Shown piece by piece: positions 1-2,594 of a stretch of 2,594 bases of DNA. Below the pieces are notes generated by a model. That model ran no database searches. It was not told where the DNA came from and saw only the letters and a list, made by a program, of their open reading frames with translations. Each line of letters opens with the position of its first letter. Positions within the stretch are counted from its first letter, which is position 1. The stretch lies in assembly GCA_000004695.1 (NCBI GenBank), contig CH709149.1, positions 1 to 2,594 of the forward strand. The letters run 5' to 3'. The stretch is from Dictyostelium discoideum (lineage: Eukaryota). A program made the translations under genes and the position numbers.

Positions 1-420
1 TTCTTCCTTAATTTTATTTAAAAACGATTCATTGCATTGGAAATTATCATATTTACGAGATAAGAAATCAGCTATAAAATTCTTTTTACCACTTATATGT
101 CTTAATTCATAATCAAATTCTTTAATATATTTCATATAATTATCTTGTCTCTTTGTGTACGTTTTATCGTTTGACTTATTGATAATATATGTAAGATTTT
201 GGTGATCAGTGTAGATTGAAACCTTTTTACCAATTAATAAATGTTGAAACTTCTTTAGAGAATCAATGATTGAAAGGAACTCTCTATCACCTATGCTGTA
301 CCTCTTTTGAGTGTCAGTAAGTTTTCTACTGTGGAGCCAAATGACTTTGAATTTATCACCTTGAATTTGATATAATACACCTGATAATGCTTTATCACTA
401 ACATCACAATACAAGTGAAA
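1..420 (-). CDS. Partial pol polyprotein: RNase H domain plus the integrase N-terminal linker. It is truncated at both ends (N-terminal RT missing, C-terminus off the window).
   Basis: Same frame as above. Recognisable homology starts at 'FHLYCD' (codon covering 420-418). Codons further upstream (421-546) are read-through of the tRNA-flank repeat and are not part of pol. Confidence 0.75.
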
Positions 421-423
421 ACT
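1..423 (-). mobile_element. 5'-truncated Ty3/gypsy-type LTR retrotransposon fragment (Skipper/DGLT-A-like). It retains RNase H and the start of the integrase linker and continues past the left edge of the window.
   Basis: The minus-strand frame reading 438->1 has no stop (146 codons). It translates to ...FHLYCDVSDKALSGVLYQIQGDKFKVIWLHSRKLTDTQKRYSIGDREFLSIIDSLKKFQHLLIGKKVSIYTDHQNLTYII...RHISGKKNFIADFLSRKYDNFQ.... These are the three RNase H catalytic blocks (D in 'CDVSD', E in 'DREFLSII', D in 'YTDHQNL') followed by the canonical Ty3/gypsy 'GKxNxxADxLSR' motif that precedes the integrase. No RT-coding sequence lies upstream; composition changes abruptly at ~423/424. Confidence 0.8.
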
Positions 424-461
424 ACCCTTTTCAGAAGTTCCGCGGATGGAATGTTTTATAT

Positions 462-473
462 GGGAATCGAACC
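462..473 (-). promoter_or_regulatory. External B box (ex-B), a TFIIIC-binding-type motif downstream of the tRNA-like gene.
   Basis: The minus strand reads GGTTCGATTCCC, which matches the tRNA B-box consensus GGTTCGANTCC. It sits 57 bp beyond the internal B box and ~30 bp beyond the T6 terminator, which is the arrangement described for Dictyostelium tRNA genes. No terminator or acceptor-like sequence follows it, so it is not a second tRNA. Confidence 0.6.
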
Positions 474-502
474 TGAGACCTCCCTTTCCGGAAGTTCCGT
501 TT

Positions 503-508
503 AAAAAA
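503..508 (-). terminator. Pol III oligo-T terminator (T6) immediately 3' of the tRNA-like gene.
   Basis: The plus strand is aaaaaa at 503-508, so the minus strand is TTTTTT, directly after the predicted discriminator base at 509. Confidence 0.5.
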
Positions 509-581
509 TGTTGCATATGGAAATCGAACCCGTGACCTCTTACATTCTAAGCTATCTATCTACCATATGAGCTAAATAAGC
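509..581 (-). tRNA. tRNA-like Pol III gene, probably a decayed tRNA pseudogene, with a possible AAT (Ile) anticodon loop. The acceptor stem is not complementary.
   Basis: Minus-strand sequence: GCTTATTTAGCTCATATGGTAGATAGATAGCTTAGAATGTAAGAGGTCACGGGTTCGATTTCCATATGCAACA. The A box TAGCTCATATGGTAGA is at 559-574 and the B box GGTTCGATTTCC at 519-530. There are 53 nt from the 5' end to the T loop, as in a class-I tRNA, and a T6 run follows. However, the 5' arm GCTTATT does not pair with the 3' arm ATGCAAC, the T stem ACGGG/TCCAT is weak, and the D region carries a tagatagatag slippage. The overall pattern resembles tRNA-Ile(AAT) with many C->T and G->A changes. Confidence 0.5.
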
Positions 582-621: not shown

Positions 622-690
622 AAAAAAAGTGAGTAAGAAAAAAAACATCAACAACAACAACATTTTTCATATAAAAAAAAGACATAAAAA
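622..690 (+). repeat. Direct repeat copy 1 (~70 bp) with a (CAA)5 core and an A-rich tail.
   Basis: aaaaaaagtgagtaagaaaaaaaacatcaacaacaacaacatttttcatataaaaaaaagacataaaaataaaataaaa matches 797-880 at ~85% identity. Confidence 0.8.
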
Positions 691-796
691 TAAAATAAAA
701 TACACAAAGAGTAAATCATTGGCCTTCTTTATTTTAATGTAATTAATTTTTTCTTTTTTTTTGAAAACTTTGCGAAGGCAAATTGAAAAAAAAAAG

Positions 797-872
797 AAAA
801 AAATCTCAGTAAGAAAAAAACATCAACAACAACAACATTTTTATTGATATTTCATTTTCATATAAAAAAAGA

Positions 873-903
<31 letters not shown>
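797..903 (+). repeat. Direct repeat copy 2 (~75 bp plus a 16-bp internal insertion), ending in a pure A29 homopolymer (875-903).
   Basis: aaaaaaatctcagtaagaaaaaaacatcaacaacaacaacattttt[attgatatttcatttt]catataaaaaaagactaaaa... followed by 29 consecutive A residues. This looks like a retroposon oligo(A) tail. Confidence 0.8.
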
Positions 904-906
<3 letters not shown>

Positions 907-1257
907 ACCTCACTTATCAGAAATTTCAAATAATAAATGTCAGAGAGCATTTATCTCGATTGGTCAATAAACATTAAAATATTAACTAAGAAAAAGAATT
1001 CACCATATATATTAAATCCAACTTTGAAAAAAATTAAATCTCTTACGTATCTAGTAATACAATAGTAATCAGTTGCAAATCAGGATGGACAGGAGTTCAC
1101 ACCGACAGCATTCAAGTAGTTAGGGATGCTAGTAATTCATTCAAACAAACAAAAATAAAAAATTCCACAATTATTAGTATTACATCAAAATTTCCAGTTG
1201 ATCACAAAGAATATCTCACAACAATGTCCACTGAGTTAAAAAATAAATTCATCAAAT

Positions 1258-1737
1258 GTGAACCAGGAAATCAACCATTCTACCTTTACCCATATCGGAG
1301 TAAACACTGAATGGGAACCAGAATCTAAAATAAAAGCACTTAACGACTTCACTGTTATAAATATCACTAAATGGAAAATTTTAAAATATAAAGAATCTAT
1401 GGCCAAAGAAGAAAAAACCAATGAAAAACAACAAAAAACAAATAATAGTGACAATACATCTTTCACCTCTCCACCCAAAGATAAAGATGAACCATCACTC
1501 AATTTAAGTTCTCAATTCGAAGTTAGCATTTCTATGCTTAATACTGACTTTATCTTTGATGACTCTTCACCAATACCAAATAAATTATTAGAGCTGATTT
1601 CACCTGAACCAATTGTTTTTAGCATCAGAGAATTGGATTCTCCAACTAAAGATAACATACTAAATGAACTACTTTATCAACCAGAACAATCAATTTATGT
1701 TCCTCCTCCTCCCCTCCACCCCCTCCACCACAATTAA
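1258..1737 (+). CDS. ORF1-like hypothetical protein, Asn/Lys/Pro-rich. It probably needs a frameshift to join the frame-3 ORF at 1668-1978; the only in-frame ATG is at ~1399.
   Basis: This ORF comes from the six-frame track (it is GTG-initiated in the track). It ends in a poly-Pro/C-rich tract, tcctcctcctcccctccaccccctccacc. Third codon positions are A/T-biased, as in Dictyostelium coding DNA. No zinc knuckle or other motif was recognised. Confidence 0.35.
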   Translation: MNQEINHSTFTHIGVNTEWEPESKIKALNDFTVINITKWKILKYKESMAKEEKTNEKQQKTNNSDNTSFTSPPKDKDEPSLNLSSQFEVSISMLNTDFIFDDSSPIPNKLLELISPEPIVFSIRELDSPTKDNILNELLYQPEQSIYVPPPPLHPLHHN

Positions 1738-1978
1738 ACAAACCAAGCAGACCAAAATTCAACATTAAACAAAAAAAGATTAAAACGATCGAAGAAAATA
1801 TAGAGGAACACCTCAAAGATACTTTAAATAACTCATCAGAAACAATATCAACAAAGAGAAAATACCAGGAGGAGCCAAATCAAGAGAATGATCTCGAACA
1901 AATATCCACAATTATGAACAACAATTTACAAAAGATTAATAAAAACTTATCAATCTCACTAACTAATGAACACAAGTA
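1668..1978 (+). CDS. Likely continuation (C-terminal part) of ORF1 in frame 3, reached by a -1/+2 shift within the Pro-codon tract.
   Basis: Frame 3 is open from 1668 to the TAA at 1976-1978 (…PPPPPPQLNKPSRPKFNIKQKKIKTIEENIEEHLKDTLNNSSETISTKRKYQEEPNQENDLEQISTIMNNNLQKINKNLSISLTNEHK*). It overlaps the frame-1 ORF by 70 nt and has no ATG until 1912. Confidence 0.35.
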
Positions 1979-2148
1979 AGATAGCAATATGGAACGCCCA
2001 AGGACACAGCAAAGAAAAATGCACCTTTAAAGCCAATTTAAAGCAAATACAATTTAAATTTGCTTTAAATTGTGTAAAAGTCACTCACACTAATCTTCAA
2101 TCCATTGTCACATTTGTTCAATCTTTAATCAAACAGTCCAATCTTTAA
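1966..2148 (+). pseudogene. ORF2 remnant: the N-terminal 60 codons of an apurinic/apyrimidinic-endonuclease-like (APE) domain, after which the rest of ORF2 is deleted or decayed.
   Basis: MNTSKIAIWNAQGHSKEKCTFKANLKQIQFKFALNCVKVTHTNLQS...* The WN-x-x-G motif and a '..C.K.THtNL' block at the same spacing (~27 aa) as L1-type 'NINGL ... CIQETHL' support an APE start. The catalytic Glu position is Val. A stop follows at 2146-2148, and the remainder of the window is AT-rich non-coding. Confidence 0.45.
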
Positions 2149-2282
2149 AGTAATGTTTTTTAATATGAAGGATAGAAAGAGTGAAAGACTAATATCATAA
2201 AAGTAAACATACTTAAAAGAGATAATTAAAAGTAAGGGCGTTATGAGAACTAAACCGAAAATCAGAATTTTATTATTTTTTT

Positions 2283-2377
2283 TAAATTTTAATTTAATTT
2301 TTTTTTATTTAATTTAATTTTTTATTTTTCAACTGAAAAAATAAAAAATTAAAAAATAAAAATTAAAATTAAATGAA
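2283..2377. repeat. Long AT-only imperfect palindrome. A hairpin is centred on tttatttttc-AACT-gaaaaaataaa (centre ~2332), with arms of ~45 bp.
   Basis: The reverse complement of the left arm (gaaaaataaaaaattaaattaaataaaaaaaaattaaatt...) aligns with the right arm (gaaaaaataaaaaattaaaaaataaaaattaaaattaaat...) with a few indels. Confidence 0.55.
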
Positions 2378-2504
2378 ATATTTTTACATGGAGATGCGCG
2401 AATTTGTTACGTTGTTGAGCTCATACTAACTTTAAATTAATTTAGTTTTGAGTCTCTAACACCTTCCCCTTCCTTCTTTAGGCTAGCTTTGGCTTAGAGG
2501 TGGA

Positions 2505-2594
2505 CTATAATCTCTTCGGTGTAACTTTTCTTCCTGATCTTGTTGTTTTAATTTGTAAACTAAGATCAAGTTCATCATCATCACTTGAAGTATT
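2505..2594 (-). CDS. Possible C-terminal end (29 codons plus stop) of a minus-strand protein-coding gene that enters from the right edge.
   Basis: The minus frame reads ...NTSSDDDELDLSLQIKTTRSGRKVTPKRL* with the stop at 2507-2505. Third codon positions are strongly A/T-biased, as expected for Dictyostelium genes. It is very short, and a second frame is also open, so support is weak. Confidence 0.2.
   Translation of the reverse strand, partial: NTSSDDDELDLSLQIKTTRSGRKVTPKRL

Follow-up and report, generated by a model that had tools for sequence, protein, structure and literature searches.

Whether a transfer RNA (tRNA) gene whose product can no longer fold may still mark a site for retrotransposon integration is the question raised by a 73-nt unit on the minus strand of a Dictyostelium discoideum sequence of 2,594 nt (GenBank assembly GCA_000004695.1, contig CH709149.1, positions 1–2,594; this whole stretch is hereafter called the window). 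An initial annotation, made from the letters alone, had read this unit, at positions 509–581, as a tRNA-shaped RNA polymerase III (Pol III) gene with dead RNA structure and preserved promoter boxes that still marks a retroelement target. Our analysis makes it likely that the unit is the relic of a class-I tRNA gene which kept its Pol III promoter DNA, and that this promoter led to the insertion of a TRE5-type retrotransposon, one without long terminal repeats (non-LTR), after the RNA structure had been lost.

The window is AT-rich eukaryotic DNA that resembles D. discoideum, the proteins encoded in the flanks being 93–95% identical to D. discoideum proteins, and is a mosaic of transposons around the unit, laid out as follows (T6 denotes a run of six T residues):

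1–426, minus strand: Skipper-like (Ty3/gypsy chromovirus) pol fragment, from the RNase H domain onwards, abutting repeat unit 2
425–481, minus strand: 57-nt repeat unit 2, 77% identical to unit 1, bearing the second B box
464–479, minus strand: second B box GTCTCAGGTTCGATTC, a perfect consensus match
482–538, minus strand: 57-nt repeat unit 1, comprising variable loop, T arm, 3′ acceptor strand, T6 and trailer CGGAACTTCCGGAAAGGG
503–508, minus strand: T6 run directly after the discriminator, resembling a Pol III terminator
509–581, minus strand: 73-nt tRNA-derived unit without cloverleaf, with the +1 G at 581 and the discriminator A at 509
521–536, minus strand: internal B box GTCACGGGTTCGATTT, one mismatch to GTCnnnnGTTCRAnYC
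564–574, minus strand: A box TAGCTCATATG at +8 to +18, two mismatches to TRRYNNARYNG
582–628, no strand assigned: AT-rich spacer of 47 nt, 13% G+C, between the +1 G and the retrotransposon 5′ end
629–2003, plus strand: TRE5-type non-LTR retrotransposon, head-to-head with the tRNA-like unit
2119–2594, minus strand: second Skipper-like copy, with its LTR at 2119–~2461 and the C-terminal end of pol at 2462–2594 (ending in DELDLSLQIKTTRSGRKVTPKRL and a stop)

For comparison we used thirteen Dictyostelium loci, 206 kb in total. Within these, region 427–628 has no repeat copies except one relative, at a locus that we call L010, and genuine tRNA genes, which led us to reject a reading of the tRNA-like unit as transposon sequence. 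An orthologous locus was sought through the proteins encoded in the window and their closest matches (P0003, P0005 and P0009), and none of these shows the same junction.

Read on the minus strand from 581 to 509, the unit has the sequence GCTTATTTAGCTCATATGGTAGATAGATAGCTTAGAATGTAAGAGGTCACGGGTTCGATTTCCATATGCAACA and runs directly into TTTTTT (508–503). Its 73 nt fit the class-I register exactly, with T54 in the canonical position, so that the class-I spacing with a discriminator followed by T6, on which the initial annotation was built, is borne out. Residues U8, A14, G18, G19, U33, R37, G53, T54, T55, C56 and A58 all stand in register; the residues off the invariant pattern are position 61, where C has become T, and position 15, where T stands for R. 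A tagatagatag slippage insertion had been proposed in the D arm, and the TAGA repeat (TAGATAGATAG) is indeed present, but it represents no net insertion because length and register are canonical. What the unit lacks is pairing. In register it forms 12 of 21 stem pairs (acceptor 3/7, D 2/4, anticodon 3/5, T 4/5), against 8.7 ± 2.2 in composition-matched shuffles (p = 0.09) and 20–21 of 21 in genuine Dictyostelium tRNA-Lys and tRNA-Thr genes from the comparison loci. The T stem ACGGG/TCCAT, listed earlier among the broken stems, is the best preserved of the four. The minimum free energy of the unit does not improve on that of its shuffles (z = −0.12); the possible 7-bp pairing CATATGG/CCATATG is real and is used in the minimum free energy fold, but that fold is no better than chance, and a functional hairpin of this kind was rejected on this ground.

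Dedicated searches led to the same result. ARAGORN was run with introns allowed and its threshold relaxed from 100% down to 50%, and also in mitochondrial and tmRNA modes. At the default, 95% and 90% thresholds it found no tRNA at the unit; a call appears at 85% and below, and at the 70% setting, the one examined, this was a spurious intron-containing ‘tRNA-Lys’. The mitochondrial and tmRNA modes returned nothing at the unit. The Rfam tRNA model RF00005 gave no match at E ≤ 10 in a 201-nt search space, its positive control, the genuine tRNA-Thr gene of locus L012, scoring 65.5 bits, and non-tRNA Rfam families produced noise matches only (E ≥ 2). The unit fails as a functional tRNA gene. Its missing tRNA structure, as asserted earlier, thus stands on the pair count and on ARAGORN at 90–100% and Rfam, and neither the overlooked cloverleaf nor the overlooked intron that would have undone that assertion came to light in ARAGORN with introns allowed or in Rfam. 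A sequence-only tRNA profile, on the other hand, matches both T-arm units (E = 2.5e-4 and 6.6e-5), the first of these at 541–514 with an envelope of 566–509. Judged by its primary sequence, the unit is a tRNA relic: tRNA descent is recognizable there, and the structure is lost.

The Dictyostelium A box has the consensus TRRYNNARYNG and the B box GTCnnnnGTTCRAnYC (PMC5391098, PMC3159450). We scored the A box against that stringent motif (PMC5391098) and against the permissive TNNNNNANNNG. The unit's A box, TAGCTCATATG, has two mismatches to the former, compared with none in three genuine tRNA genes, and none to the latter. Its internal B box, GTCACGGGTTCGATTT, at +46 to +61, has a single mismatch, the last conserved C being T; the two boxes are thus not intact, as had been claimed. 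The B box starts about 33 nt after the A box, within the expected 30–60 bp, and the +1 G at 581 lies 7 bp before the A-box T at +8, as it should. Allowing one mismatch, the B-box consensus occurs twice in the window, against 0.07 matches expected. The T6 terminator reported earlier is present: TTTTTT directly follows the discriminator, where genuine neighbours carry T4–T7.

TRE5 elements insert about 40–54 bp upstream of their targets in opposite orientation, with ranges of 34–95 bp across the family (PMC3159450, PMC5006619, PMC5911963). A TRE5-type terminus lies at 629–633, 47–51 nt upstream of the unit's +1 G and head-to-head with it, which agrees with this rule in distance and orientation. 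The same non-LTR element occurs in the same orientation 41–49 nt upstream of a genuine tRNA-Lys(UUU) gene (locus L006) and a genuine tRNA-Glu(UUC) gene (L007), and the terminal sequence GTTGTTGTTGATGTTTTTTTT is common to all three loci. The retroelement target proposed in the initial annotation is thus supported by an element whose terminus and geometry are those found at genuine tRNA genes. Spacer 582–628 ends in AATCAAA, as do the leaders of genuine tRNA genes. The terminus is 100 nt from the internal B box and 157 nt from the second B box, so the insertion position fits the unit's own boxes and not the second one. Farther into the element, ORF1 (open reading frame 1; ~1200–1980) is degenerate and frameshifted, and ORF2 begins with MNTSKIAIWNAQG at 1966; the ORF1 and ORF2 proteins, on the plus strand from ~1200, are 65–93% identical to D. 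discoideum proteins, and the ORF1 region is 90–97.5% identical to its nearest copies. With its TRE5 terminus, its leader and its second B box arranged as at genuine genes, the locus was apparently once a real tRNA gene locus. In those features that can be tested in the DNA, the unit agrees with a TRE5 target and with a predicted type-2 Pol III unit, its boxes being near-consensus and their quality borderline for such a unit.

The 5′ module of the TRE5-type element (~176 nt) is present in two tandem copies, at 629–804 and 805–~980, the second of which contains a 29-nt A run (875–903) that looks like a poly(A) tail and is internal; L007 has the same module duplication. We considered the A-rich stretch 629–903 as a separate 5′-truncated element with a poly(A) end and rejected this, since L006, L007 and L011 show the stretch to be the duplicated 5′ module of the TRE5-type element itself. 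In L011, at ~7950, another TRE5-type 5′ end faces only broken tRNA remnants (7790–7900), namely a 5′ tRNA half on the plus strand (beginning AGCCGGCTTTGGCGCAATGGTAGCGCGATTGACTGTAG) and a degenerate B box (AGGTCGCAGGGTCGATTCT) on the minus strand, at which neither ARAGORN nor Rfam calls a tRNA.

The initial annotation had overlooked a 57-nt tandem repeat, whose units at 482–538 and 425–481 agree at 44 of 57 positions. Outside the B-box core they are identical at 33 of 45 positions, against 12 ± 3 for random 57-mers. The repeat copies the variable loop, T arm, 3′ acceptor strand and trailer, and with them a second B box, GTCTCAGGTTCGATTC (479–464), without mismatch, whose GTTCGA begins 36 nt past the end of the gene. 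External B boxes are characterized by a B-box core that follows the gene at a distance of about 41 bp, a position which the second box takes; it lies 57 nt from the internal B box, compared with a spacing of 50–53 nt to the external B box of four genuine genes. Unlike typical external boxes, it carries the GTC signature of internal ones, and its T-arm similarity outside GTTCRA is 37/50, against 15–18/50 in genuine genes. On account of this similarity and of the GTC signature, we read the second box as a recognizable partial gene duplicate at the position of an external B box. Such a duplication of the 3′ half hints at how external B boxes originate, and this is testable. The trailer after T6 contains a GC-rich palindrome, CGGAAcTTCCG (489–499, minus strand), repeated as CGGAACTTCTG (432–442); the trailer has 43% G+C and adjoins the spacer of 13% G+C, and the related L010 locus is without the palindrome.

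As references for the parent gene we took three Dictyostelium tRNAs from the comparison loci and 21 human or yeast sequences, and the assignments below are leads only. The initial annotation had named tRNA-Ile(AAT), from a candidate anticodon loop AGAATGT. That loop misses the register by 2 nt and has no U33; in register the loop reads TTAGAAT, with U33, R37 and the anticodon AGA. An Ile(AAT) reference matches at 47 of 73 positions with 3 gap columns, and is outdone by an Ala(AGC)-like reference, the best of all, with 51/73 ungapped (31/47 outside the boxes). The leading candidate for the parent would therefore be a tRNA with an AGN anticodon resembling Ala(AGC), and not Ile(AAT). Nor are the differences mostly transitions, as had been stated: there are 12 transitions and 13 transversions relative to Ile(AAT), and 6 and 16 relative to the Ala(AGC)-like reference. 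The direction of change holds, with 13–19 GC→AT against 1–6 AT→GC changes for every candidate parent, and the unit has 38% G+C, compared with 50–62% in genuine tRNA genes.

When the structure was lost relative to the insertion can be approached through L010. In a sensitive search with 427–628 this locus was the best match, ahead of genuine tRNA-Thr genes. At positions 2636–2708 it contains another unit, again of 73 nt precisely, that opens with a +1 G and closes with CAACA; TTTTTT and a second B-box unit come next. This 73-nt unit forms 11 of 21 stem pairs; ARAGORN leaves it uncalled at the default threshold, and all that it reports at 90% is a spurious tRNA-Trp with an intron. The two units are 64% identical without gaps (47/73). 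Outside the boxes they agree at 27 of 47 positions, and the L010 unit agrees with any reference tRNA at no more than 18 of 47. Of the 9 broken pairs of the window unit and the 10 of the L010 unit, eight coincide (hypergeometric P = 0.0017), and four mismatches are identical (T4·C69, T6·T67, G10·A25 and A29·A41). We simulated independent AT-biased decay from one functional parent, with 4000 runs per setting: an overlap of at least 8 arose at P = 0.002–0.009, at least 4 identical mismatches arose at P = 0.004–0.007, and both together in 0 of 4000 runs per setting. The simplest reading is that the two units descend from a common ancestor that already lacked the cloverleaf.

At L010, the terminus of a different TRE5-type repeat, here called Y, stands exactly 48 nt upstream of the +1 position, as it also does upstream of a genuine tRNA-Thr(AGU) gene in L012. 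The Y copies are 92–93% identical, compared with 64% between the two tRNA-like units, and since the element copies are far less diverged than the units, the insertions appear to be much younger than the structural loss. The cloverleaf was thus probably lost before the TRE5-type insertions, in support of the idea of a dead gene and a live landmark. The earlier idea that the boxes stayed in use after the structure was dead thereby receives indirect support, from the 8 broken pairs and 4 mismatches shared with L010 and from the young element at −48 there.

The first ~70 nt of Y are themselves tRNA-like over almost their full length (L010 2519–2585, minus strand; L012 9391–9450, plus strand), matching the sequence-only tRNA profile at E = 8e-6 and 0.02. 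They carry an A-box-like TAGTGCAGTGG and the GGTTCGATTTCC variant that the window unit also has, and neither ARAGORN at its default threshold nor Rfam calls a tRNA there. The 5′ end of this retrotransposon thus bears Pol III-promoter-like boxes.

From these comparisons we infer factor binding, transcription and an order of events as follows. Through a surplus of GC→AT substitutions, a class-I tRNA gene would long since have ceased to encode a cloverleaf, and it would have kept the DNA features of a type-2 Pol III unit, that is, the +1 G, near-consensus A and B boxes and T6, and a tandem copy of its 3′ half would have created a second, perfect B box 57 nt on. According to the literature, TFIIIC sits on the B box, helped by the A box, and positions TFIIIB upstream of +1; at the unit, TFIIIC would bind the B and A boxes and place TFIIIB about 50 bp upstream of +1. 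The TRE5-A ORF1 protein is reported to bind TFIIIB subunits, and targeting is abolished by B-box mutations; at the window locus, the TRE5 ORF1 protein would likewise recognize TFIIIB. The TRE5-type element would thus have been inserted 47–51 nt upstream, with its 5′ end facing the gene. To judge from L010, the RNA structure would already have been dead when such insertions occurred, and the landmark would therefore need promoter DNA only, and not RNA function. The locus now stands within a mosaic of Skipper and TRE5 fragments. For TRE5-A, a functional B box is needed and the A box strongly helps (PMC5391098, PMC3159450), and solo B boxes attract it at less than 1% of the efficiency of tRNA genes (PMC5391098).

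A dead tRNA that is a live landmark is already a known kind of site, with two precedents. In ribosomal DNA (rDNA), TRE5-A inserts 37–50 bp upstream of the +1 G of A/B-box loci which have no tRNA similarity and are transcribed to a T5 or T6 run (PMC5391098, PMC3159450). Like the window unit, these loci have the +1 G 7 bp before the A box, GTCnnnnGTTCRAnYC, tRNA-like spacing between the boxes and an oligo-T run, lack tRNA function and receive TRE5-type integration upstream (at 37–50 bp in the rDNA case). They differ in that their tRNA likeness is confined to the boxes, that they lie on the rDNA element and that their transcription is demonstrated; the window unit is chromosomal, tRNA-derived throughout, followed by a duplicated 3′ half, set in a transposon mosaic and putatively transcribed. 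In yeast, Ty3 inserts at the Pol III-bound tRNA relic ZOD1 (PMC5911963), which, as we propose for the window unit, serves as a landmark for a Pol III-dependent retrotransposon (PMC5911963). There the agent is the Ty3 integrase and factor occupancy is demonstrated, whereas in the window it would be a TRE5 ORF1 protein with target-primed reverse transcription, and occupancy is predicted. The genuine tRNA-Lys(UUU), tRNA-Glu(UUC) and tRNA-Thr(AGU) genes of L006, L007 and L012 equal the window in leader, T run, downstream B box and the position and orientation of the TRE5 element; they have 20–21 of 21 pairs, an Rfam score of 65 bits and an external box with 15–18/50 similarity, as against 12 of 21, no score and 37/50 in the window. 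Finally, the window resembles extra-TFIIIC (ETC) sites and solo B boxes insofar as its second B box, perfect in sequence, might bind TFIIIC alone. ETC sites, however, have neither an A box nor TFIIIB or Pol III, while in the window unit the A box stands at the canonical +8 and the TRE5 element at the canonical distance from +1.

What is new is a chromosomal example, a second example with shared defects and a duplicated 3′ half at the external-B-box position. Current understanding is not overturned by either locus. Experiments with artificial baits and the rDNA element show that TRE5-A reads the Pol III promoter and not the tRNA, and the window and L010 are natural chromosomal cases in agreement with this: two different TRE5-type elements stand at the canonical −47 and −48 although the RNA structure was, it appears, lost long ago. 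Such sites are invisible to tRNA finders and would hence be missed in the annotation of integration sites. They may explain ‘orphan’ TRE insertions, and may mark sites of Pol III factors within transposon clusters.

The order of events could also have been the reverse. A tRNA gene that was intact and active when the TRE5-type element arrived, and that decayed later, for example in a silenced transposon cluster, would leave boxes that are unremarkable, and indeed the agreement of the two units within the boxes (20/26) does not significantly exceed that elsewhere (27/47; Fisher p = 0.13). The window's TRE5 element has decayed as well, with frameshifts, deletions and loss of its 3′ end, and the TRE5 5′ end of L011 also faces broken tRNA remnants, decayed targets perhaps being common there. 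However, the broken pairs and mismatches shared with L010 put the structural loss before the two loci split, and the elements at these loci differ from each other and are less diverged (Y 92–93%, ORF1 region 90–97.5% and Skipper 96% identical) than the units (64%). A neutral divergence of 3–10% amounts to about 2–7 changes per 73 nt, too few for 9 broken pairs. We consider late decay rather unlikely. A different question, and one compatible with the favoured early loss of structure, is how the relic arose: unequal recombination between an internal and an external B box could have duplicated the 3′ half and replaced the 3′ acceptor strand, and this would account for the total loss of acceptor pairing. 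The repeat period of 57 nt is near the spacing of 50–53 nt between the internal and external B boxes of genuine genes, the acceptor strands deviate from complementarity by transversions and not by transitions alone, and the four B-box units of the window and L010 are, by eye, 70–82% alike. Against such a chimeric origin, genuine external B boxes show no extended T-arm similarity (15–18/50), the other three stems are damaged too, so that point decay is needed anyway, and L010 has the same acceptor mismatches, which places any such event before the split. We regard this origin as quite unlikely.

It is improbable, in our assessment, that the unit is maintained by selection as a member of a family of non-tRNA Pol III units or TFIIIC sites, giving a short T6-ended transcript or serving as a chromatin landmark. 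As a chromosomal counterpart of the rDNA A/B-box loci, with the TRE5 insertions as a by-product, such a unit would have a precedent that is both transcribed and targeted by TRE5-A (PMC5391098). Despite a divergence of 36%, the two units kept the 73-nt length, the +1 G, ATATGGTA, GAGGTCA.GGG.TCGATT, CAACA with T6 and the second B-box unit, and the window's second B box matches the consensus perfectly. On the other side, the boxes are not significantly better conserved than the rest (p = 0.13), the L010 A box has 4 mismatches to the stringent motif, both L010 B boxes are imperfect, an RNA structure signal is absent (z = −0.12) and the family has only two members. In its boldest form, that the window and L010 represent a maintained family of Pol III units without cloverleaf and with a doubled B-box module, whose 57-nt duplication reveals the origin of external B boxes, this idea strikes us as a long shot; if it were true, these units would be landing pads for TFIIIC and TFIIIB, for example chromatin boundaries in transposon clusters, or sources of a short non-tRNA transcript. 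We give practically no credence to an atypical but functional tRNA, be it intron-containing, with displaced boundaries or of organellar type, or to chance resemblance. Canonical length and conserved single residues are all that speak for these: stem pairing is at chance level (12/21), ARAGORN with introns is empty at 90–100%, as are its mitochondrial and tmRNA modes, and Rfam has no match at E ≤ 10, and chance is opposed by two B boxes against 0.07 expected, the profile match at E = 2.5e-4 and the genuine tRNA-gene context.

Several points weigh against the favoured account, a relic that lost its structure before the insertion. The internal B box has T for C61 and the A box lacks R15 and Y16, changes that may weaken the predicted TFIIIC binding; present-day activity is likewise a prediction from sequence. 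The window's TRE5 copy lacks its 3′ end, Skipper sequence standing in its place, and a target-site duplication cannot certify the insertion. The timing argument comes from one related 73-nt locus, in an assembly labelled ‘Dictyostelium cf. discoideum’; the L010 unit may be a paralogue or an orthologue, and gene conversion is possible. With gaps, the gene-body identity of the window and L010 units is 50 positions, no higher than the 51/73 of the best reference. The 206 kb of Dictyostelium DNA, including the transposon-dense L013, contain no third family member, and a metagenome scan for the family signature gave no match. Most of the reference tRNAs are from outside Dictyostelium, and Ala(AGC) is a lead only.

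The Skipper-like sequences flank this arrangement on both sides. The minus-strand translation of 1–460 contains a reverse transcriptase–RNase H domain (Pfam PF17917, E = 3.6e-26), and the best relatives of this protein are all from D. discoideum, with up to 95% identity. The pol fragment at 1–426 is 96% identical to full-length copies of 6.9 kb and ends in a clean cut at 426|427; a full-length relative has a weak chromodomain match (E = 2.2e-4, 21.5 bits; the Pfam cutoff is 25.1 bits). We considered the fragment as an insertion of the tRNA-targeting elements DGLT-A or Skipper-2 and rejected this on account of the 6.9-kb relatives, the weak chromodomain match and a breakpoint in place of an LTR end; it is an internally truncated fragment of a Skipper-like chromovirus. 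Its reading frame stays open past the breakpoint into the duplicated tRNA-like unit (beginning IKHSIRGTSEKG; 427–460, minus strand), an extension due to chance, since at this point the paralogous copies run on into unrelated DNA.

Between the TRE5 ORF2 start and the Skipper LTR, within 2003–2118, lies a ~70-nt piece (2003–2072) that recurs beside Skipper-like sequence in L006 (17150–17220), L009 (1994–2061) and L012 (16651–16721). A minus-strand Skipper-like element directly downstream of a plus-strand TRE5-type element is found in the window (629–2594), in L011 (7946–19553) and in L012 (9387–19588); between the latter two, the TRE5 parts are only 70% identical and the Skipper parts 98%. This recurring arrangement could reflect an insertion preference or a duplication history. 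The LTR of the second Skipper-like copy contains, at 2266–2390, an AT-rich imperfect palindrome whose arms (2288–2329 and 2337–2378) are 83% complementary.

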